Source: a virus. From it: 32,000 nucleotides of DNA. How positions within the stretch are numbered: the stretch's first letter is position 1; each line of letters starts with the position of its first letter. Position numbers and translations under genes: made by a program. Location: IMG/VR virus record IMGVR_UViG_3300031820_000002, positions 3,561 through 35,560 of that record. One strand, 5' to 3'. Below, piece after piece: positions 3,386-24,269 of this stretch. The notes under the pieces were generated by a model. The model saw only the letters and a list, made by a program, of their open reading frames with translations. It ran no database searches and was not told where the DNA came from.

Positions 3386-3715
3386 ATGAAGATGCTTGCT
3401 ACGATGACTGAACCAGCCGAATTCACTGACCAGGCCCCAGCAGTTGTAGGCCTCCAAAGCAACAGTGCGCAAACGCTTGCGTCCAAGATTGCCGACCACT
3501 TCGGCGAGGCGCTGACGAGTCTCTTCGGCCACGACCCGGTGTGCGACTTCCTGATCAACTCGATCAGGGACCACATCGAGGAGTGTGGCGTCGACGTCGA
3601 CTACAACGCTGCTGAGCTTCGCGAGAAGCTCGCTGACGTCTCGAACCTCTGCATGAAGCTCCACAACGTCGCGGGCAACATCAACCCACGTCGGTCAAAT
3701 CAAAGCGTGGCTTGA
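3386..3715 (+). CDS. Hypothetical acidic protein
   Basis: GC-rich third codon positions and an AGGA box upstream of the ATG. Preferred over the overlapping minus ORF 3287-3664. Confidence 0.5.
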   Translation: MKMLATMTEPAEFTDQAPAVVGLQSNSAQTLASKIADHFGEALTSLFGHDPVCDFLINSIRDHIEECGVDVDYNAAELREKLADVSNLCMKLHNVAGNINPRRSNQSVA

Positions 3716-4229
3716 CGAAGAATTCGTCCTGGTCCTTCAGGGTCCAGCGCTCCATGCGGAAGTCGATTCCATCTTCGCTTCCAGTCTTGAGCACAGAGTC
3801 CAACTTGAATCTGTGTTCGTACGGTGGGAAAAATACATCGCAGGTGTAGACGCCACTGACCTTCGTGATGATCAATTCTGAGCACTGGGGATGCTCGACG
3901 GCCATTGCGTAGACTTCGCCACCACCGATGACGAACGCCTTGCCAGCAGGCCACTGCAGGGCTTCGTCAAGGTTTGCCGCTGGTGTTGTTCCAGAGAAAT
4001 TTACGCCGCTGCGGGATAGGACGATGTTGATCCTGTTCGGCAGCGGCCTGAACTTGGGCGGAATCGAGTCCCAGGTTTTTCTGCCCATGATGACGGTGTT
4101 CAGCTCTGAACCCTCCGTCGTCAGCTCGCGGAAGTGCTTCATGTCCTCTTTGAGGCGCCATGAAAGGCCGTTGGCCTTGCCGATGCCACGCGCCTCATCG
4201 TGTGCGACGACGATCGTGAACCGCTGCAT
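3681..4229 (-). CDS. folA: Dihydrofolate reductase
   Basis: VVAHDEARGIGKANGLSWRLKEDMKHFRELTT, VIMGRKTWDSIP and FRPLPNRINIVLSR are typical DHFR motifs, and the length (182 aa) fits. Confidence 0.85.
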   Translation of the reverse strand: MQRFTIVVAHDEARGIGKANGLSWRLKEDMKHFRELTTEGSELNTVIMGRKTWDSIPPKFRPLPNRINIVLSRSGVNFSGTTPAANLDEALQWPAGKAFVIGGGEVYAMAVEHPQCSELIITKVSGVYTCDVFFPPYEHRFKLDSVLKTGSEDGIDFRMERWTLKDQDEFFVKPRFDLTDVG

Positions 4230-6040: not shown

Positions 6041-6048
6041 TTGACAAT
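6041..6048 (+). promoter_or_regulatory. -35-like TTGACAAT box
   Basis: TTGACAAT lies 28 nt upstream of the 6076 ATG, followed by an AT-rich TATAT stretch. Confidence 0.5.
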
Positions 6049-8903: not shown

Positions 8904-9269
8904 ATGAGAGTTGCTATTGTAGGCTCAAGAGGTTACTCAGACCTGGACGCTGTGGTCGATTACGTTAATTCCTTGCCCGAAGACACCGTGGTGATCTCGG
9001 GCGGCGCAAAAGGAGTAGACCAAGCCGCAGAGACTGCGGCCAGGCGTCGAGGTCTTGAGATGGTCGTCCATTTGGCCGACTGGGAGGCTTTTGGCAAAGC
9101 GGCAGGCCAAATTCGCAACCAAAAGGTCGTTGATGACTGTGAGAAATTGGTGGCCTTTTGGGATGGCGTAAGTCCTGGCACAAAAGGAGCAATTTCGATG
9201 GCTTCTAAGGCTGGGAAGCTGGAAAAGGTCTTCAGAGAGAAGAACCCAAACCAAGGGTCGCTCTTTTAG
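8904..9269 (+). CDS. SLOG/DUF2493-like Rossmann-fold protein
   Basis: MRVAIVGSRGY...VVISGGAKGVDQAAE...LVAFWDGVSPGTKG fits the pattern of phage SLOG (DprA/LOG-like) proteins. Confidence 0.55.
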   Translation: MRVAIVGSRGYSDLDAVVDYVNSLPEDTVVISGGAKGVDQAAETAARRRGLEMVVHLADWEAFGKAAGQIRNQKVVDDCEKLVAFWDGVSPGTKGAISMASKAGKLEKVFREKNPNQGSLF

Positions 9270-10270: not shown

Positions 10271-10300
10271 AAAAGGCCCTAGCGATTTGCTAGGGCCTTT
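10271..10300. terminator. Bidirectional hairpin terminator between convergent genes
   Basis: AAAAGGCCCTAGC-GATTT-GCTAGGGCCTTT is a perfect stem flanked by A and T runs. Confidence 0.6.
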
Positions 10301-11084
10301 AGTCGTTGCCGGCGTTGTTGCGTGCCCACGGGTAGTACTCGCGCTTGGCTTGGACCTGCGCAAACGTTGGCGCAGATCGATCGACAAGAACGAGCGCCGT
10401 CAAACGGCCACCGAACACGCATCCCGTGTCGATTCCATAACAGCCGTAGCCGTCATGGAGGTCGACGCGGGGATCTTCTCGGCTGTGAACAGCATGGCCG
10501 TAGATGACATTCTCTGGACCGCTCCAGCGCGTTCCCCACGGCACGGCGCCGGGCACCGACTCCAGGGGGTTCTTGTGGTTCGAGGCCATCTTCCCGGTGA
10601 CCGGATCGACATCACGAACACGACAGACCGTATCTTTGGCTTGGCCGTCTGGCCGAGTGCCATCGCATTCGAATCCAGCGTGAACGACGAGCCACGTCGG
10701 ACTGTCGTGCCCCAAACCGATGGTCTTGGGCATTGCTCGAAGGAAGTTGATGTCTTCGTCCGAGAGGGCCATGTGCTCTTGCATGCGCTGCTCATCGAAC
10801 CGCCGCATGGGGTTCTTCTTTGCCTCGCCTGACTTGATACGGTCCTCCCAGTTGCGCCAGCGGATGTGCTTCTCCTCGTGGTTGCCCATGACGCAGGAAG
10901 CTCCCAGCTCGCGCGCACGACGAACGCAGCCGACAGGGTCGGGGCCCCGATCGACAAGGTCTCCTGCGAAGACGAGGCAATCCTTCATGCCGTCCTCGCG
11001 GTATTCTACGACCTTGAGCAGCTCGTTCAGCTCCTCAAGGCATCCGTGGACGTCTCCAACTACTATGTACCTTTCGTAATTCAC
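10299..11084 (-). CDS. Calcineurin-type metallophosphoesterase (ApaH/PrpA/lambda-phosphatase-like)
   Basis: GDVHG, GDLVDRGP and GNHE motifs occur in the canonical order. Confidence 0.8.
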   Translation of the reverse strand: MNYERYIVVGDVHGCLEELNELLKVVEYREDGMKDCLVFAGDLVDRGPDPVGCVRRARELGASCVMGNHEEKHIRWRNWEDRIKSGEAKKNPMRRFDEQRMQEHMALSDEDINFLRAMPKTIGLGHDSPTWLVVHAGFECDGTRPDGQAKDTVCRVRDVDPVTGKMASNHKNPLESVPGAVPWGTRWSGPENVIYGHAVHSREDPRVDLHDGYGCYGIDTGCVFGGRLTALVLVDRSAPTFAQVQAKREYYPWARNNAGND

Positions 11085-13300: not shown

Positions 13301-13308
13301 ATTGTCAA
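13301..13308 (-). promoter_or_regulatory. -35-like TTGACAAT box
   Basis: Plus-strand ATTGTCAA. It overlaps the stop of the upstream small gene. Confidence 0.45.
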
Positions 13309-13842: not shown

Positions 13843-15681
13843 CTAAGCGACCTTGTCGTCCTCGGTCTGAGTCTCGACGGTTGCCTGGTCATGGGAACGG
13901 AAGACATTCTCCTCTGGAACGTCGTCATTGTCAAAGGCCAAGACGCCCTTGGTGGCACGACGAGTCGATGGGATGTACTGCGCGTTCTCGGGACCCTTGA
14001 CGTAGTCCTTCTTCCAGAACCTCTTAATCGCAAGCCATTCGCCAGGCTGAGGCAGCGCCATGTCACGCTCGCGCAGTTCGTTGCGAACCCACTCATCGAC
14101 AGGGCGGTCCTTGTAGATGCTGTACTTCTTATTGTCGAGATCAAGTTCCAGTTCGACATCCATCGGCGTGTAGCCACGATAGATTTTGCAGCACCAGTGG
14201 CCGCGCACATCAAATCGATGAGACAGCTTCGCGCGCAGCTTGCCGCCTGAGTATCCCTTGCTGATCTCCCTGATCACTTTGTCGCGCAGGTAGACCGTGT
14301 AGAACATCGGAGGGACGGCTTGCTTGATGCCGAGGTCGCCAAGCTTGTTCTTGAACTTGCTGATCGTGTGCAGGCTGGGCTTGCGCTGAGCGATGACGGT
14401 TGAGTGGTGATCGTTGATGCAGTCGACGAGCCCGTGCAGGACGAACGGCGCCAAACACAGCTTGTGGTTCCACATCACGAATTCCTGGACGTGGTGCGTA
14501 GAGATATGGAGGTTCATCTCCCAGGTCTCGCCGTGATCGATGTAGCCCTTGCTGATCAAAATCTCGTGATGCTCGCCGCTGGCCTCGGCGATGATGCCGA
14601 CGAGCATGTATTCACCTGGGTCAAGACCACGCGTCTCAGCCTGGAGCTGGGAAAGCGCAATTCCGCCTGTGAGCGCAAACCAGCAAGTGTCGAACGGAAG
14701 CTTGTCCGGGAACGGAAGGCGCTGCAGGGCTTCGGCCTGACGCTTGTGGAGAAGGATCCCCTCTTCCTCGGGAACGTCCACATGTCCCTCACGAGGGTCG
14801 TAGAACTTGAGATGGGCGATATCCTCGGTGACGTGACGGTCGACCGAAATATGCAGCTCGTTGTACGACTCCGGCGTGATCTCGAAGATGCGCGCTTTGC
14901 GAAGGTAGTTGTACATAGCCCCGCACTCGGTACGGAACTTCTCTTTGACCTTCTTGTTCCCCCAGTTCTGCTTGAGGGCGCGGAGAACCATCAGGTAGTT
15001 CTCGACGACGTACTCGTGGGCCTTGTTGTCGGGCTTGCCCCACCACGGCATCTCCTTTGGCTTCCACGGCAGCGGTCCGCCACCGATTTCTTCTAGAAGT
15101 GTAGGGATGCGCAGGATGCGCTCCATCTGAAGCTTGAGCCGGCTGGTCTCAGGAAGCCACTGCGGCGCCTTCGCGCGCAACGTTTTCAGCGTGTCTTCCC
15201 ATGCCCGCTGGATGCTGGAACGAAGCTCGTCGGCGGTGAACCTCTCGGCCTGCTCCAAGATCATGTTGATGATGCCACCGGGAAAATGGCCGCCATCATT
15301 GAAGTACAGCCAGTAGACGTCTTTCTCTTCGTCTTGGCGACGCGCACGCAAGAACCACATCCCCCACTTTTTGCGGAGGCTCTCGAACAGCAGCCGGTCG
15401 TTTTCCGAGACTCGGTAGCCGACCCATTGCTCACCGCTATCCAGCATGAGGCCGATGTATTTAGGGTTCGGCGACTTTGATGGCTTGTCAGCGTCGAGCT
15501 TGTCCTGCCACCGGATGGTGATGTTGCCCTCGGGGATTACCTGCTGTTCTGTCACAGGCCAGATGAGCTGAACGACGGGGTAGAGATAATGCGTCGCCCC
15601 CCTTGGACAAGGGACCGCATCCGCTCCGACACGGACGATGTTCTGTCCTTCGACGATGGGGGTGTCCGGGGTGACCTTCAT
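13843..15681 (-). CDS. Large hypothetical protein (612 aa)
   Basis: Longest ORF in the window, with varied composition and no motif I can name. The antisense ORFs are discounted. Confidence 0.6.
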   Translation of the reverse strand: MKVTPDTPIVEGQNIVRVGADAVPCPRGATHYLYPVVQLIWPVTEQQVIPEGNITIRWQDKLDADKPSKSPNPKYIGLMLDSGEQWVGYRVSENDRLLFESLRKKWGMWFLRARRQDEEKDVYWLYFNDGGHFPGGIINMILEQAERFTADELRSSIQRAWEDTLKTLRAKAPQWLPETSRLKLQMERILRIPTLLEEIGGGPLPWKPKEMPWWGKPDNKAHEYVVENYLMVLRALKQNWGNKKVKEKFRTECGAMYNYLRKARIFEITPESYNELHISVDRHVTEDIAHLKFYDPREGHVDVPEEEGILLHKRQAEALQRLPFPDKLPFDTCWFALTGGIALSQLQAETRGLDPGEYMLVGIIAEASGEHHEILISKGYIDHGETWEMNLHISTHHVQEFVMWNHKLCLAPFVLHGLVDCINDHHSTVIAQRKPSLHTISKFKNKLGDLGIKQAVPPMFYTVYLRDKVIREISKGYSGGKLRAKLSHRFDVRGHWCCKIYRGYTPMDVELELDLDNKKYSIYKDRPVDEWVRNELRERDMALPQPGEWLAIKRFWKKDYVKGPENAQYIPSTRRATKGVLAFDNDDVPEENVFRSHDQATVETQTEDDKVA

Positions 15682-16129: not shown

Positions 16130-16411
16130 ATGGCAAAGAGGACTAAAAAAGAACAGCGCCAGCTGGAGGCCCAGTGGCGCGACGAGGAGGAGTACCTCAA
16201 GGAGGAGATAGAGCGCGACCTTGAGGAGAACGTGCGTCGTCTGTGGAAAACGACGCGGTGGTACCTCGGTCACGAGGAGTGGACCTTCTACCAGGGTTTC
16301 GAAGAGGACACCTGGTGCGGTTGCGACTGCAACAGGTGGAACCGCTTTGAGCTGCAGAAGGCGATCGATCGTCTACGAGCTTGGCGTGCCCGCAGGGAAT
16401 ACTGGATCTAG
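16130..16411 (+). CDS. Hypothetical protein
   Basis: ORF of 93 aa, charged at the N-terminus, with a W/C-containing C-terminus. Confidence 0.45.
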   Translation: MAKRTKKEQRQLEAQWRDEEEYLKEEIERDLEENVRRLWKTTRWYLGHEEWTFYQGFEEDTWCGCDCNRWNRFELQKAIDRLRAWRARREYWI

Positions 16412-16502
16412 CGGAAGACGGCGGAGTCGAACCGCAAGCGAGTTCATCACCCGCTCCATCCCGCTTCCAACGGGCTCAGGCTCCACAGCCTGTTCATCTT
16501 CC
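16412..16502 (-). tRNA. tRNA-Ser(GGA), class II
   Basis: Acceptor GGAAGAT/GTCTTCC, loop TTGGAAG, long variable arm, T arm TGCGG-TTCGACT-CCGCC, G73. Confidence 0.75.
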
Positions 16503-16506
16503 AGTG

Positions 16507-16716
16507 CTACCGACGTCTAGCACGTTTTTCCGGTAGCTGTATGACCTGATTGCTATTGCGGCTCGTTTTCACTGGGAGCTTCCTGATCTCGGCGAGGCGA
16601 CGGGGATGAGCCCGTTTGGCCTCTGTCGTCGTCCCGCACTGTTGGCAGTACGTGACGTAAGCATTTTCCGTGTCGTGAACGTCGAGGTGATCGTAGCCGC
16701 AATTGAAACACTTCAA
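16507..16716 (-). CDS. Zinc-ribbon protein
   Basis: CFNCG...CQQCG motifs. Last gene of the ligase/PrfH operon. Confidence 0.5.
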   Translation of the reverse strand: MKCFNCGYDHLDVHDTENAYVTYCQQCGTTTEAKRAHPRRLAEIRKLPVKTSRNSNQVIQLPEKRARRR

Positions 16717-16722
16717 GGTGTT

Positions 16723-17352
16723 TTAATCCCAGTCCCCTCTCAGGTACCTCTTGAGCTGCCACTGCTTGTTCAGCACGTGATCAGTGACAACGCCGTCCTG
16801 AGAACGGATCGTTCTGCGTTTGTCTCCCCGCATCCCCGAACCGACCTGTTCACGCCGCGAAGATGACGTTTGCGCAGAATGTTGGTTGTGTGCCGCATCC
16901 CAGAGTCTTGCTCGAAGAACCTCAAGCGCAGTTTCTTTGTTGCTGTGCTGAGATCTTTCAGACTCACATCTAACCGTGATCCCGCTCGGTATGTGCGTGA
17001 GCACGACGGCGCTATCCGTCACGTTTCGGTGCTGGCCGCCGGCCCCAGATCCACGACAGAATTTCCAATCCAGGTCGCCATCGTTGACGATGACCTGAGT
17101 CGGAGAGCGCTCGGGCAGAACGGCAACCGTGATGGTGCTGGTCTGCATCCGTCCACGCTTCTCGGTGGGCGGCACCCTCTGCCATCTGTGCCCACCTGAT
17201 TCGTTGGCAAACGCTACATCGGAGCCCTTGCCAGAGGCCTTGAAGACAAGAAGGCCTGGTCTCTCGCTCACGATTTCGAGGTCAAAGACCCCTCCGAGCC
17301 CCCATCTTTGCGTAGATCGCAAACTGGTCGCGAACGAGTAATTTGGCATCAT
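16723..17352 (-). CDS. prfH: PrfH-like (class I release-factor GGQ domain) protein
   Basis: GSGAGGQHRNVTDSAVVLTHIPSGITVRCESERSQHSNKETA is the RF GGQ/peptidyl-hydrolase domain. Trimmed to MMPNYSF (GAGGG box upstream), giving about 209 aa, a PrfH-like size. Confidence 0.7.
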   Translation of the reverse strand: MMPNYSFATSLRSTQRWGLGGVFDLEIVSERPGLLVFKASGKGSDVAFANESGGHRWQRVPPTEKRGRMQTSTITVAVLPERSPTQVIVNDGDLDWKFCRGSGAGGQHRNVTDSAVVLTHIPSGITVRCESERSQHSNKETALEVLRARLWDAAHNQHSAQTSSSRREQVGSGMRGDKRRTIRSQDGVVTDHVLNKQWQLKRYLRGDWD

Positions 17353-17410
17353 CGCCGCCCTCGGCGGCCCTAATTTCGACAAAAACCGACATCCACCGAC
17401 CATAGCCGAT

Positions 17411-17578
17411 TCAGATGTCTATGACAATAATCGTCGACTTAGGCTCTTCTTGTCGAGGGCGTTCCTCTGGTTCCCAGGGGTGATGCTCGATTTGCAGCGG
17501 GGCATGGATGTCCTGCTTTGGGCAATGCGGACAGTAATGCCAGGCTGGCCTCGCATGAGGGCATAGCGGTATGTCCAT
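17411..17578 (-). CDS. Small Cys/His protein (55 aa, hand-called)
   Basis: MDIPLCPHARPAWHYCPHCPKQD.... Fills the gap between the ligase and the prfH-like gene. Confidence 0.35.
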   Translation of the reverse strand: MDIPLCPHARPAWHYCPHCPKQDIHAPLQIEHHPWEPEERPRQEEPKSTIIVIDI

Positions 17579-17596
17579 ACTCAAAGTATAGCCCGT

Positions 17597-18214
17597 TCAG
17601 CTGTCGACGATCTTGCGACCTTCAACCTCGCCATATTTCGTCATGACGCGGTCGATCCATTTCTGGGTCTTGGCCTTCGACATGACGAGCTTATGTCCTT
17701 CTCCGCCTTTACCGACGACACCTTCTTCGGTGATGTCGGATATCTCTCCCTGTCGGACTTGGTCGACGAAGCCACGCGTCCATCGACGAGTGCCGAGAAA
17801 TCTGGGAATGTTGAGATGCTCGAACAGCTTGAGAAATTGTTTCGGGCCGAGAATTCCCTTCTTGTACGGATTCACATCGAACAGGGTTAGCTGTTTTTCG
17901 TCTTCAGGTTCATGGAGCCCAGCGAACGAGCGAGGTCCCCAGAATTCAGTGAAAACGATCATCCGTTCCCATCGCTCATCGCGTGCGACCTTGATCAGTG
18001 GTTCAGCGAGAGTTCTTTCAAACACGGCGATGGCGCCGCCGAACACCTCGTCGGTTTCGTCAAACAAACGAGTGCGAGTGCCGTGCTTGTACCAGCCGCT
18101 CTTCCTGGCCCACTCCCAACGCAGGTTGGAACCGTCGAGCTTGTCGAAGACGTAGGCATCGAATTCTCGAAAGTCCTGCCCAGTGCTTCGCGGGATGGAT
18201 GGATAGTCCTTCAT
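17597..18214 (-). CDS. ATP-dependent RNA ligase (Rnl2/PF09414-like nucleotidyltransferase domain)
   Basis: Motif I DKLDGSN (KxDGxN), motif III VFTEFWG, motif IV EGVVGK, motif V KAKTQKW, in the canonical order over 205 aa. Confidence 0.7.
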   Translation of the reverse strand: MKDYPSIPRSTGQDFREFDAYVFDKLDGSNLRWEWARKSGWYKHGTRTRLFDETDEVFGGAIAVFERTLAEPLIKVARDERWERMIVFTEFWGPRSFAGLHEPEDEKQLTLFDVNPYKKGILGPKQFLKLFEHLNIPRFLGTRRWTRGFVDQVRQGEISDITEEGVVGKGGEGHKLVMSKAKTQKWIDRVMTKYGEVEGRKIVDS

Positions 18215-18483
18215 TGAACGAGATCATCATCATGCAGCCGGCAGTAGCCGAGAGGCTCTCCGCCACCGCCGCAGGTGCAGTCAGCCTCTTCAAGGCAGCC
18301 TTCAGGAAGACAGACCGCCGAAAAAGGATAATCCGCCCGAGGGAGCACCTTATCCATCTCGACGATGTATAGATGACCGACGGACGGGAACGACGCGGCA
18401 ACCCCTCTGACTCGCCCACGACCCTTCAGGTCTGGTGTGTCGACGAAGACAAGCTGGTCTTGCCTGTACGTGTACTCGGCCAT
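18211..18483 (-). CDS. Hypothetical protein
   Basis: First ORF after the promoter box at 18511. Overlaps the ligase start by 4 nt. Confidence 0.45.
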   Translation of the reverse strand: MAEYTYRQDQLVFVDTPDLKGRGRVRGVAASFPSVGHLYIVEMDKVLPRADYPFSAVCLPEGCLEEADCTCGGGGEPLGYCRLHDDDLVQ

Positions 18484-18510
18484 TTACCCGGGGTATCAGG
18501 TGATGGTCGG

Positions 18511-18518
18511 ATTGTCAA
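18511..18518 (-). promoter_or_regulatory. -35-like TTGACAAT box
   Basis: Plus-strand ATTGTCAA, between tRNA-Ser(TGA) and the ligase operon. Confidence 0.5.
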
Positions 18519-18520
18519 GA

Positions 18521-18613
18521 TGGAGGAGAGCTGAGGAATCGGACCCCAACCGAGTTACTCACCCGGTCCCTTCCGCTTCAAACGGACGCCCGTCCCAGAC
18601 GGGTTAACTCTCC
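18521..18613 (-). tRNA. tRNA-Ser(TGA), class II
   Basis: Acceptor GGAGAGT/GCTCTCC, loop TTTGAAG, long variable arm, CCA encoded. The T-loop is an atypical TCCGATT. Confidence 0.75.
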
Positions 18614-18638: not shown

Positions 18639-19193
18639 TCACTCGTCCTGCTGCTCGGTCAAATCCGAGGTCCAGTACAGGTACGACGCCCAGGCGTCAG
18701 GAGCTGACGTCTGGCTGACCTGGATGGTCATCACCGGTACCCAGTTCGGCTGCGCCGGCTTCGAAAGCAGACGCATTCCAGCCTGAGCCGGCGTGCGGTC
18801 TTTCTTGTCGCGGTTGCAGTCGTAGCAACAGGTGACGATGTTGCTCCACTCGGTCTTTCCGCCCTGCGCGCGGGGAGTGACGTGGTCGTACGTCAGATCC
18901 GCCATCTTGCCCTTCATGCCACAGTACTGGCAGGTGTACTTGTCGCGGGCGAAGATGTTGACACGAGAGAACTTGACCTTCTGCTTGTGGCGCCGGAACG
19001 CATTCAGCAGACGGACAACAGCGGGGATCTTGATGACGAGGCTGACCGACCGGACATCGTGGTCGTACTCCTCGATGACCTCAACCTTTCCCATCGTCAG
19101 TAGAGTGATAGCCCTCTGCCAGGAGATGGCCTTGATCGGCTCATATCCCTGAGAGAGCACAAGAGTTCGCAAATTCGTAGTAGCAGTCGACAC
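18639..19193 (-). CDS. HNH endonuclease
   Basis: CQYCG...DHVTPRAQGG...NIVTCCYDCNRDK. Confidence 0.85.
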   Translation of the reverse strand: MSTATTNLRTLVLSQGYEPIKAISWQRAITLLTMGKVEVIEEYDHDVRSVSLVIKIPAVVRLLNAFRRHKQKVKFSRVNIFARDKYTCQYCGMKGKMADLTYDHVTPRAQGGKTEWSNIVTCCYDCNRDKKDRTPAQAGMRLLSKPAQPNWVPVMTIQVSQTSAPDAWASYLYWTSDLTEQQDE

Positions 19194-19740: not shown

Positions 19741-20094
19741 TTATTTGATCAGAGGGAAGTTTGACACCTCCTTCTTCACAAGGGATCGGTGGCACGGCAC
19801 GATGCCGATAGCCATAAGTTGACCATTCCAGGGAGCATCGGGCTCTCGGATGGCAACATGAGGAATGTTCTTCTTCTTGAGCTTCTGTTCGAGTCGAAGA
19901 AGCTCAAGCTCGCTGCGCGCACCAAGGGCAACCGCTCGTGTATCAGACGGAAGGTTGCCAGGGCTGCTCTCGCCTGCGGCGTGAATCAGCTGGGCGCAGA
20001 GGTCACCGATGGGAGCATCGAGGCGACCAATGCAGTAGTGGTAGAGGCAATTCTCGACGGAAACGACCGGAGAATCGTCTGGACTTGCAGGCAA
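19741..20094 (-). CDS. Pth2-family peptidyl-tRNA hydrolase-like protein
   Basis: At 117 aa, the spacing of AQLIHAAG...VALGARSELELLRLEQKL...HVAIREPD...LMAIGIVP resembles PTH2. Confidence 0.5.
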   Translation of the reverse strand: MPASPDDSPVVSVENCLYHYCIGRLDAPIGDLCAQLIHAAGESSPGNLPSDTRAVALGARSELELLRLEQKLKKKNIPHVAIREPDAPWNGQLMAIGIVPCHRSLVKKEVSNFPLIK

Positions 20095-20181: not shown

Positions 20182-20493
20182 CTACTTCTCGACTTTCACG
20201 CAACGGCCGAAAATCGCAGAGGGAGCAACCCAGCCGTTGATGAATCCCTTGTTGTTGGCGATTTGGAATCGCTTATCGGCGCCGATGGCCCTGATGAGAT
20301 GGAAGAGCACCTTGCCGTTTACCTTGACGAGTACAACGTCACCAACGTTGAGTGAGCCGGCATCTGTCACCGGCTCCACGGTGCAGAGGTTCCCGTCATC
20401 CACCTTGCCCGTCATTGAATTGCCGCGAGGCCGGAACTGAACGGTTTCTCCAGCCTTCAGCTTCGCGATATGTCCTGTTGCCCATCCATCCAT
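20182..20493 (-). CDS. S24 (LexA/UmuD-like) peptidase-fold protein
   Basis: RGNSMTGKVDDGNL..V resembles the GxSM Ser motif, with a downstream Lys region (ANNKG). Confidence 0.5.
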   Translation of the reverse strand: MDGWATGHIAKLKAGETVQFRPRGNSMTGKVDDGNLCTVEPVTDAGSLNVGDVVLVKVNGKVLFHLIRAIGADKRFQIANNKGFINGWVAPSAIFGRCVKVEK

Positions 20494-24089: not shown

Positions 24090-24261
24090 TCCTGGAAATG
24101 CACTGCAAGTTCGCTAACTTACATGTGATTTCAGTAGTGCCGCGCATTGGTGTTTCCTTGGACTTTCGGTTGGTTTCTACGAGAGAGGCTTGCTTACCGT
24201 TGCTCCCTTCCGGGCCTGGCGGGGTTCACAAGTTGAATGCACCCTAATGGACGAGCGGCGC

Positions 24262-24269
24262 ATTGTCAA
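24262..24269 (-). promoter_or_regulatory. -35-like TTGACAAT box
   Basis: Plus-strand ATTGTCAA. Leaves a leader of about 140 nt before the 24089 start. Confidence 0.45.

Follow-up and report, generated by a model that had tools for sequence, protein, structure and literature searches.

A putative +1 frameshift cassette in the gene of a short RF1-type release factor encoded near an RNA-ligase-like protein in a huge-phage tRNA array

Introduction

In the 32 000-nucleotide stretch of viral DNA analysed here (IMG/VR record IMGVR_UViG_3300031820_000002, positions 3561–35 560; hereafter the window), a minus-strand unit at 16507–18518 encodes an RNA-ligase-like protein and a release-factor homolog with a GGQ motif. 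A first reading of the sequence (hereafter the original prediction) took the GGQ protein for a relative of PrfH, and proposed that the two genes form a repair pair for damaged ribosomes or tRNAs in which an Rnl-type ligase replaces RtcB, the typical partner of PrfH. Is the locus such a pair, and if it is not, what are the two proteins?

The recognition domain of PrfH is diverged and makes no contact with the mRNA, and PrfH is active only on ribosomes cut at A1493 (PMC9304027). The prfH gene is always preceded by a translationally coupled rtcB gene, and neither codon recognition nor hydrolysis by the release factors needs their domain 1, the part for the interaction with RF3 (PMC1586002). Genes for release factors 1 and 2 are on record in huge phages, their architecture and any recoding being left without comment (PMC7162821). 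According to the recoding literature, programmed frameshifting regulates RF2 genes and not RF1 genes (PMC12421855, PMC5009743, PMC1586002). In a 2025 survey of 12,753 genomes, TAG was never used in the prfB shift motif, and no programmed frameshift was found in prfA (PMC12421855).

Reading frames of the release-factor gene

According to the list of open reading frames (ORFs) and ARAGORN, the ORFs, the protein motifs, TTGACAAT and the tRNA-Ser(GGA) gene named in the original prediction are all present on the minus strand. The GGQ protein had been described as a product of about 209 residues. The ORF with SGAGGQHRN is indeed present, but the protein is not the plain ORF of 209 or 226 residues; its true N-terminus lies in another frame, and the frameshift had been missed.

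Read as a plain ORF of 226 residues, the gene matches RF1 only from about residue 52 onwards (Escherichia coli RF1 residues 162–334, 143 bits), and strand β1 and helix α5 of domain 2 are seemingly absent. In the first 40 residues of this ORF, the DNA for helix α5 is read out of frame. ORF0, which runs from ATG 17392 to 17285 (MSVFVEIRAAEGGDDAKLLVRDQFAIYAKMGARRGL; RF1 counterpart, FLEVRAGTGGDEA...), encodes both strand β1 and helix α5. ORF0 ends with CGGAGGGGT CTT TGA C, that is, ...CGG AGG GGT CTT TGA C.... All the parts of a prfB-type cassette are recognized here: the Shine–Dalgarno-like GGAGG (17295–17291), the 3-nt spacer GGT, the slippery CTT, the in-frame TGA and the 3′ C, with CTT TGA C at 17287–17281. 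A +1 shift, in which the T of TGA is skipped, would join Leu36 to Asp-Leu-Glu-Ile-Val... of the long ORF (17283–16726) and give a product of 222 residues. The +1-frame part encodes what remains of domain 2, including PPT (the PxT motif), then the GGQ-bearing domain 3 and domain 4.

The addition of ORF0 raises the RF1 match from 143 to 166–169 bits, and the match is then uninterrupted over the residues 111–334 of E. coli RF1. The 222-residue product is aligned without gaps, at 66% identity, with P0167, a natural 222-residue homolog without the frame break (protein homologs are labelled P and fetched loci L). There is no room upstream of ORF0 for domain 1. The S/T-rich "N-termini" of several database homologs (P0132, P0147, P0123 and others) correspond to the same region read in the wrong frame. 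Because the true N-terminus lies in a frame other than that of the GGQ part, the release factor would be made only through a prfB-type +1 frameshift at CTT-TGA-C.

Three other explanations of the split frame were considered. Fusion of the Cys/His-rich 57-residue ORF to ORF0 by stop readthrough, by which a zinc finger would replace domain 1, was rejected; the relatives have two stops here, with differing spacing. TGA as a sense codon was also rejected, as no suppressor is present among the 39 tRNAs of the window, and the zero frame past TGA is not release-factor-like whereas the +1 frame is. Transcriptional slippage is unlikely, the longest homopolymer run at the site being T3.

Conservation of the putative frameshift cassette

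The relatives of the release factor were surveyed in 80 viral and 80 bacterial genome loci (40–82% identity), and the α5 motif was sought in each frame. The 97-locus phage set also takes in the window's own contig (L001) and one Minicystis rosea locus. At least 75 of the 97 loci of the phage set and 70 of the 80 bacterial loci require the same +1 shift at the equivalent codon; some loci counted as without a result (L086 and L087) also carry the shift and were missed by the regular expression used. Six loci are in frame without the cassette, mirroring the lineages in which the prfB shift was lost.

The cassette was compared in 137 unique genes, whose proteins show 43–100% identity. In 136 of them, CTT precedes the stop, though leucine has six codons. 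The stop, always located at the same codon, is TGA in 105 genes (77%), TAG in 29 (21%) and TAA in 3 (2%). The base after the stop is C in 107 genes, the positions −12 to −7 are CGGAGG in most, and a GGAG-type motif is found in 102. In the protein sequences, both reading frames remain conserved. Most bacterial members come from Myxococcota, including the finished genomes of Minicystis rosea, Archangium gephyra and Nannocystis. As the cassette is conserved across the homologs beyond coding needs, these comparisons indicate that the putative frameshift is programmed.

In a betaproteobacterial branch (L233–L237: a Hydrogenophilales metagenome-assembled genome, Novimethylophilus, Achromobacter anxifer, Thiobacillus denitrificans and a proteobacterial metagenome-assembled genome), CTT TGA C is located about ten codons further downstream, and ORF0 ends with ...RGHL. 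Either the shift site has changed its place, or it has two origins. In Minicystis rosea (CP016211.1; L002/L166) and other Myxococcota, the gene is annotated as a 188-residue "peptide chain release factor 1", and a separate 37-residue gene overlaps its start.

The cassette resembles the prfB (RF2) signal in detail. In both, GGAGG lies about 3 nt before the slippery CUU, an in-frame stop (mostly UGA) is followed by C, the main ORF is in the +1 frame, the gene encodes a class-I release factor, and some lineages are in frame without the shift. The two differ in three respects. The gene described here is RF1-like and not RF2-like, and TAG is the stop in 21% of the genes. The site lies within domain 2 (about RF1 residue 146, or about position 150 of the RF2 model), whereas that of prfB is at codon 25/26, in domain 1. 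Moreover, an RF1-like factor is here paired mostly with UGA, so the stop is not factor-specific. RF1 itself conserves the two Arg codons from which CGGAGG is formed (..ARRW..). As the site is non-homologous in position and the Arg-Arg codons were already conserved in RF1, the simplest interpretation is that the cassette likely arose independently of the prfB cassette, by convergence.

Assignment to RF1

With the NCBIfam models, the corrected 222-residue protein scores 218–223 bits for prfA (cutoffs, 400 and 423.25), 128 for prfB (370), 91.1 for PrfH (TIGR03072; 166.65) and 41 for ArfB (100). The prfA equivalog cutoff is thus missed, and only the model positions 105–340 are matched. Pfam PF03462 (PCRF) and PF00472 (RF-1) are both above their cutoffs, and SGAGGQH and RVPPTE are present. 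Against the sequences of the Protein Data Bank (PDB), the scores are 166–169 bits for RF1, about 92 for RF2 and 56 for PrfH. The AlphaFold model of the in-frame homolog P0167 (predicted local distance difference test score, pLDDT, 80) gave query-normalized TM-scores of 0.87 with ribosome-bound RF1, 0.77–0.83 with RF2 and 0.66 with PrfH.

The decoding elements of RF1 are retained, namely the tip of helix α5, the Gln, the PxT loop as PPT, the Thr, the GGQ and the switch-loop region. At the α5 tip, the family conserves RAAEGGDDA where RF1 has RAGTGGDEA. The SPF motif is absent from the short release factor. The sequence and fold scores together with the retained decoding motifs indicate that the protein belongs to the RF1 type and not to PrfH. 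The GGQ protein is therefore an RF1-derived class-I release factor without domain 1, which has a PrfH-like architecture and is not a PrfH. Of the likeness to PrfH in the original prediction, the absence of domain 1 stands; the family assignment does not, as the protein groups with another release factor, RF1.

Compared with RF1 (prfA), the short factor has the same PCRF and RF-1 domains, GGQ, PxT-type loop, GG-x-D/E-A tip of helix α5 and switch-loop region, and is 35–41% identical to the solved RF1 chains, both bacterial and mitochondrial. In contrast to RF1, it lacks domain 1 (about 105 residues) and the last ~25 residues, needs a frameshift, and is an extra gene in Myxococcota and huge phages. 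With PrfH/RFH of the RtcB2 systems it shares the size of a class-I homolog without domain 1 (~200–220 residues), the GGQ domain and, here, a nearby RNA ligase gene. It differs from PrfH in falling under the PrfH hidden Markov model cutoff, in the weaker fold match and in keeping the RF1 decoding residues; no coupled rtcB lies upstream of it at the window locus, and the ligase partner is not conserved.

RNA-ligase-like protein

The ligase-like protein of 205 residues carries the nucleotidyltransferase motifs I (K25-L-D-G-S-N), III (FTEFWG, residues 88–93, with E90), IV (EGVVGK, 164–169) and V (K180-A-K182). K25, D27, G28, N30, E90, E164, G165, K169, K180 and K182 are invariant in 21 diverse members of the family. 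The protein matches the RNA ligase family phrog_548 (1.9e-10). The window protein has no Pfam match at E values up to 0.1 and no NCBIfam match, and its sequence has no match in the PDB even at E = 10; it is placed by fold search only. PF09414 is precomputed for some homologs at 60–80% identity.

In the fold search with the AlphaFold2 model (pLDDT 91.8), the top 29 PDB matches are RNA ligases (Rnl3, REL1, T4 Rnl2, Naegleria Rnl5 and T4 Rnl1; E = 1e-7 to 3e-5, query-normalized TM-scores 0.5–0.67). DNA ligases rank lower (E = 3e-5 or weaker, 0.39–0.45), which speaks against the DNA ligase that the original prediction had considered as a possibility; its assignment as Rnl-type and not RtcB agrees with the phrog_548 match, the fold ranking and the invariant motifs. 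The nucleotidyltransferase domain makes up the whole protein, and neither an OB domain nor any accessory domain is present. The profile search over 1.84 billion representatives found 766 family representatives, nearly all of 195–220 residues. One member is ORF354 of Xanthomonas phage XacN1, annotated as hypothetical. From sequence and model, the protein is best described as a stand-alone, single-domain, Rnl-type ATP-dependent RNA-ligase-like nucleotidyltransferase of a distinct family with constant length.

The genomic surroundings of the family suggest its role. tRNA genes are located within 10 kb in 65 of 82 viral ligase loci, nearly always on the same strand. The recurrent neighbours in the 82 loci (Pfam-confirmed where named) are a 2H-SAK phosphoesterase (19 loci), His_Phos_1 (17), an Rnl1-type ligase (14) and PTH2 (11), and further NADAR, HNH endonucleases, EF-Ts and GroES. 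None is universal among the 82 loci, the commonest neighbour family being present in 19. A set of tRNAs, Rnl1/Rnl2, cRec/2H and PTH2 makes up the published picture of RNA repair in jumbo phages, and operonic links of cRec to RNA ligases have also been published (PMC7824862). Since the family occurs beside same-strand tRNAs and the 2H, His-phosphatase, Rnl1 and PTH2 genes, repair of tRNA breaks is the best-supported role, with tRNA as the presumed substrate.

In its fold and in motifs I, III, IV and V of the covalent nucleotidyltransferases, the protein matches Rnl2/REL1, Rnl3 (PF09414-type) and the ligase of the T4 Pnkp–Rnl1 pathway. Like the latter it is phage-encoded, and the genomic tie of its family to tRNAs and end-healing enzymes is as in jumbo phages (PMC7824862). 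It differs from Rnl1–Rnl5 in lacking the N- or C-terminal modules that define each of them, and from the T4 pathway in that no Pnkp-type kinase was recognized in the window.

Phage setting and layout of the unit

ARAGORN finds 39 tRNA genes in the window, all on the minus strand between 13657 and 31845, with small protein genes interspersed. Most amino acids are covered, and there is no suppressor tRNA among the 39. At the gathering score, Rfam RF00005 reports 32 of them; both tRNA-Ser genes that flank the unit are among the seven without a report. The G+C content of the window is 54–59%. No match was found by megablast of 8 kb of the window against the phages of INPHARED/GenBank, so no close sequenced relative is present there. 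The close relatives of the window proteins lie on IMG/VR viral contigs of 190–675 kb, and the identical GGQ ORF is present in two independent sequencing runs and samples. According to these results, the window is a tRNA island of a large uncultivated (huge) phage.

Table 1. Features of the minus-strand unit and other genes in the window.
Feature	Position	Strand	Evidence and remarks
YAcAr/SLOG-family protein	8904–9269	+	
Dihydrofolate reductase	3681–4229	−	
Metallophosphoesterase	10299–11084		Named in the original prediction
tRNA-Ser(GGA)	16411–16502	−	ARAGORN; below Rfam gathering score; 4 nt past the zinc-ribbon gene
Zinc-ribbon protein CxxC...CxxC, 69 residues	16507–16716	−	6 nt past the release-factor stop; weak Zn_Ribbon_TF match (2.4e-4), below Pfam cutoff
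GGQ gene as plain ORF, 226 residues	16723–17403	−	ORF list; SGAGGQHRN
Release-factor +1-frame part, 186 residues plus TAA	16723–17283	−	
Putative +1 frameshift cassette	17281–17296	−	
Release-factor ORF0, 36 codons	17285–17392	−	Zero frame
Cys/His-rich small protein (CPH...CPHC)	17411–17584	−	ORF list; 57 residues from TTG, 55 from ATG; between ligase and release factor
RNA-ligase-like protein, 205 residues	17597–18214	−	KLDGSN, FTEFWG, EGVVGK, KAK
90-residue ORF	18211–18483	−	ORF list; stop overlaps ligase start by 4 nt (ATGA), translationally coupled
TTGACAAT at the head of the unit	18511–18518	−	Exact-match repeat; candidate −35-like promoter element
tRNA-Ser(TGA)	18521–18613	−	ARAGORN; immediately upstream of TTGACAAT
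HNH endonuclease	18639–19193	−	PF14279/PF01844; best NCBIfam similarity, HNH of IscB/Cas9d; just upstream of the ligase unit
Pth2-like peptidyl-tRNA hydrolase	19741–20094	−	PF01981, 8.7e-06, 26.4 bits (cutoff 23); within the tRNA array
Small S24-peptidase-like protein	20182–20493	−	
NUDIX hydrolase–thymidylate kinase fusion, 405 residues	20781–21998	−	Inside the tRNA array
cREC (cyclic-phosphate-processing receiver) domain protein	25489–25863	−	PF20274, 1.6e-12, above cutoff

The unit is tightly packed, its genes overlapping by 4 nt or being spaced by 4–18 nt (Table 1). No terminator-like site lies between the genes on the minus strand, the sole match on this strand (18334–18347) being weak and inside the 90-residue ORF. 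The tight packing and the absence of an intergenic terminator fit a single transcription unit without proving it, and co-transcription is plausible. The 90-residue ORF has no Pfam, NCBIfam or PHROG match, and is not present beside the ligase in the relatives. No Pfam or NCBIfam family matches the Cys/His-rich ORF, which is kept upstream of the release factor in the close relatives L085–L088; the zinc-ribbon gene is syntenic with the release factor in close relatives only. These two small Cys-rich, probably zinc-binding, proteins flank the release factor in the window, and both are upstream of it in L088.

At the head of the unit, TTGACAAT is one of ten exact copies in the window, against 0.8 expected, and none of 100 shuffles reached ten. 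The copies are located at 6041, 6495, 7414 and 9274 on the plus strand and at 13308, 13934, 18518, 24269, 26595 and 30186 on the minus strand. All are co-oriented with the local genes, and usually T or C precedes; the copy at 13934 lies inside a 612-residue ORF. No −10 consensus is evident after the motif. TTGACAAT is a real repeated signal, and plausibly serves the phage as a promoter or regulatory motif. About 30 nt downstream of the copy at 24262–24269, a 44-nt hairpin at 24189–24232 on the minus strand (CCAGGCCCGGAAGGGAGCAAC) matches domain IV of the bacterial signal recognition particle (SRP, 4.5S) RNA (Rfam RF00169, 40.7 bits, gathering score 40). The hairpin is possibly a mini SRP RNA that the phage encodes within its tRNA array.

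Unusually many genes in the window end with TAG, namely 9 of 20 curated genes and, in a greedy set of non-overlapping ORFs, 19 of 52, which is a small sample. A recognizable upstream Shine–Dalgarno sequence is absent from most window genes, yet the frameshift cassette carries GGAGG. In some related huge-phage loci, suppressor-type tRNAs (anticodons CTA, TCA and TTA) are found near the ligase or the short release factor (L004, L009, L041/L042, L052, L066, L068, L090 and L134), which hints at stop-codon recoding in those phages.

The cREC gene and the metallophosphoesterase gene, which the original prediction had named as possible sources of end-healing activity, are both real (Table 1), and the cREC protein is a candidate 2′,3′-cyclic-phosphate end-healing enzyme elsewhere in the tRNA array. 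As had been noted there, no polynucleotide kinase was recognized in the window searches. The NUDIX–thymidylate kinase fusion was considered as a hidden polynucleotide kinase and rejected; its strong dTMP-kinase match (1.7e-23) points to nucleotide metabolism. The window contains no homologs of 2H, His-phosphatase or Rnl1 by tblastn, and no RtcB among its ORFs of 300 residues or more. HNH genes recur upstream of the ligase in the relatives, in three neighbour families (18, 14 and 10 loci); HNH–Rnl2 fusions have been published. In other phages (L045, L047, L065, L140, L143 and L144), an S24-like protein is encoded directly upstream of the short release factor.

Discussion

The reading that we favour, with a probability of roughly 0.6, is that the minus-strand cassette belongs to a translation-maintenance island in a huge-phage tRNA array, and that this island contains two functionally separate items, a minimal RNA ligase and a frameshifted RF1-type factor without domain 1. 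The gene structure, the conservation of the cassette, the family assignment and the genomic associations are direct observations. The ligase, with Lys25 of motif I, would most likely reseal 3′-OH/5′-P breaks in tRNAs cut by anticodon nucleases of the host or of rivals. End healing would be provided by other enzymes of the island, the cREC protein here or the 2H and His-phosphatase enzymes in related phages. Translation of the release factor would start at ATG 17392, and 36 codons would be read to CUU-UGA-C. There, GGAGG would pair with the anti-Shine–Dalgarno sequence, the peptidyl-tRNA-Leu would slip from CUU to UUU, and the ribosome would go on in the +1 frame to complete the 222 residues. 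The product is predicted to read UAA and UAG as RF1 does, and to release the peptide without RF3, as domain 1 is the domain in contact with RF3 and L11. Its yield would hinge on slow termination at the in-frame stop, and the frameshift would thus act as a sensor of termination capacity. The frequent TAG stops of the phage would make an extra RF1-type activity useful. The two genes would be neighbours since both belong to the tRNA island, and not as an obligate pair like PrfH and RtcB.

Several points weigh against this reading. The frameshifting, the codon specificity, the substrate of the ligase and the co-transcription are all matters that we infer. Most cassettes use UGA, which an RF1-type factor, as a reader of UAA and UAG, is not expected to read. 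Autoregulation in the manner of prfB therefore does not follow for those genes; either the level of host RF2 gates the synthesis, or UGA-C is used because no other stop is leakier, or the factor has a wider specificity than RF1. In roughly a fifth of the members, PxT is PPN or PPS. The scarcity of upstream Shine–Dalgarno sequences in the window bears on whether the host ribosome uses the GGAGG of the cassette. The ligase lacks the substrate-binding accessory domain of Rnl1–Rnl5, and may be active only with a partner or in another way; T4 Rnl2 deprived of its C-domain is reportedly unable to adenylylate a nick. Finally, the genes for the ligase and the release factor lie next to each other, in either order, in a second clade, a divergent one, at distances of 3–7 nt (L121 and L133), 321 nt (L137) and 867 nt (L123/124). 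This exceeds the expectation for a random 300-kb genome, and the two genes could be functionally linked there.

Among the alternatives, the codon specificity of the short factor may have changed or broadened, to UGA or to all three stops. The cassettes would then be truly autoregulatory as in prfB, and the family would be a third self-regulated termination factor. The recognition loop, PP[T/N]EKRGRV[H/Q]TS, is the same in the TGA-type and TAG-type genes, that is, regardless of the stop in the cassette. Conservation is far stronger at the second Pro of PPT than at the "x" of PxT in RF1, and many members have Asn or Ser in place of the Thr of the motif. Against these features, the overall similarity is clearly to RF1 and not to RF2, SPF is absent, and UGA-C was perhaps chosen merely as the weakest stop context. 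We consider the changed or broadened specificity unlikely.

In the pair proposed originally, analogous to PrfH–RtcB2, a domain-1-less factor would rescue the ribosomes that cleaved rRNA or tRNA has blocked, and an Rnl-type ligase would seal the RNA again once its ends had been healed. The coupling of a release factor to RNA repair is not without precedent (PMC6514570, PMC9304027). Like PrfH, the factor has no domain 1; the two genes are separated here by 12 nt plus the 57-residue gene, they are adjacent in L003/L085 and in the divergent clade, and the window also contains cREC, Pth2-like and metallophosphoesterase genes. The survey does not bear out a conserved pairing. The ligase is found within 10 kb in only 8 of 80 phage release-factor loci, and the release factor within 10 kb in about 17 of 82 ligase loci, where the two are adjacent only in the closest relative. 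All eight loci with both genes also carry tRNAs, whereas the ligase is present in none of the 38 tRNA-free release-factor loci, and the dominant association of the ligase is with tRNA arrays. In the 80 bacterial loci, mostly from Myxococcota, the release factor has no conserved neighbour and no ligase or RtcB partner; in the 80 phage loci, it has no conserved neighbour beyond a NADAR gene (12 loci). The contig of one homolog (P0186) ends at the release factor, and its neighbourhood is uninformative. The factor itself also fits RF1 better than PrfH in both model score and fold, and the retained RF1 decoding residues probably require a stop codon in the A site, which is ill-suited to sense codons or damaged decoding centres. 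As co-occurrence is rare, the bacterial copies stand alone and RtcB is missing among the window ORFs of 300 residues or more, a dedicated rescue-and-repair pair is unlikely, and shared residence in tRNA islands explains most of the co-occurrence. Any functional link between the two proteins seems doubtful. The broader proposal of phage-borne RNA-damage repair keeps a plausible setting, with the tRNA array, the cREC and Pth2-like genes, and ligase relatives near 2H, His-phosphatase and Rnl1 genes; the interpretation as PrfH–Rnl rescue and repair is largely unsupported.

It is quite improbable that the ligase-like protein is something other than a tRNA repair enzyme, such as a DNA ligase, a capping-type nucleotidyltransferase, an enzyme that processes phage transcripts, or an inactive or adaptor domain. 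The small size without an accessory substrate-binding domain, the missing Pfam match of the window protein, the lack of a universal end-healing partner and of a recognized polynucleotide kinase in the window would be expected of such a protein. They are outweighed by the invariance of all the catalytic motifs across the family, by the higher rank of RNA ligases over DNA ligases in the fold search together with the absence of an OB domain, and by the strong same-strand co-location of the family with tRNA genes and RNA-repair enzymes.

With the window alone at hand, an indel, whether from faulty assembly or in a decaying pseudogene, would have stayed conceivable. Such an origin of the broken frame is effectively refuted by the recurrence of the same break at the same CTT-T(GA/AG/AA) site in 137 unique sequences from independent metagenomes and finished genomes, with both frames conserved and the identical protein in two independent samples.

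A class-I release factor, a prfB-type frameshift and an Rnl ligase are each of a known kind, and the frameshifted short RF1 is the more interesting result. In the full-text literature, most subscription journals being outside the scope of the search, no description of a frameshifted or domain-1-less RF1-like family was found, and a prior description is possible. A bolder proposal, which we regard as rather unlikely in its entirety, is that the family represents a third widespread class-I factor in Myxococcota, some Betaproteobacteria and many huge phages, derived from RF1, devoid of domain 1, and gated by a convergent prfB-like +1 shift at CUU-UGA/UAG/UAA. In its boldest version the factor would read beyond UAA and UAG, with true autoregulation, and in phages it would cooperate with PTH2, cREC and the ligase nearby, so that translation is sustained while host nucleases attack the tRNAs.

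The PrfH–RtcB analogy, which is tempting yet unsupported, is removed from this locus. The gene is systematically mis-annotated as a "release factor 1" of 180–226 residues with a false N-terminus, as in Minicystis rosea, and hundreds of phage and bacterial records are affected. The ligases form a length-constant minimal family tied to tRNA arrays, and would be among the smallest known ligases if they are active alone. Huge phages carry, beside their tRNAs, a streamlined termination factor that is presumably independent of RF3. The presence of the same cassette at a non-homologous position of an RF1-type gene, with TAG in a fifth of the cases, looks like convergent evolution of a well-known recoding signal. 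The short-RF1 family is thus a natural test of whether this frameshift signal needs factor-specific autoregulation.

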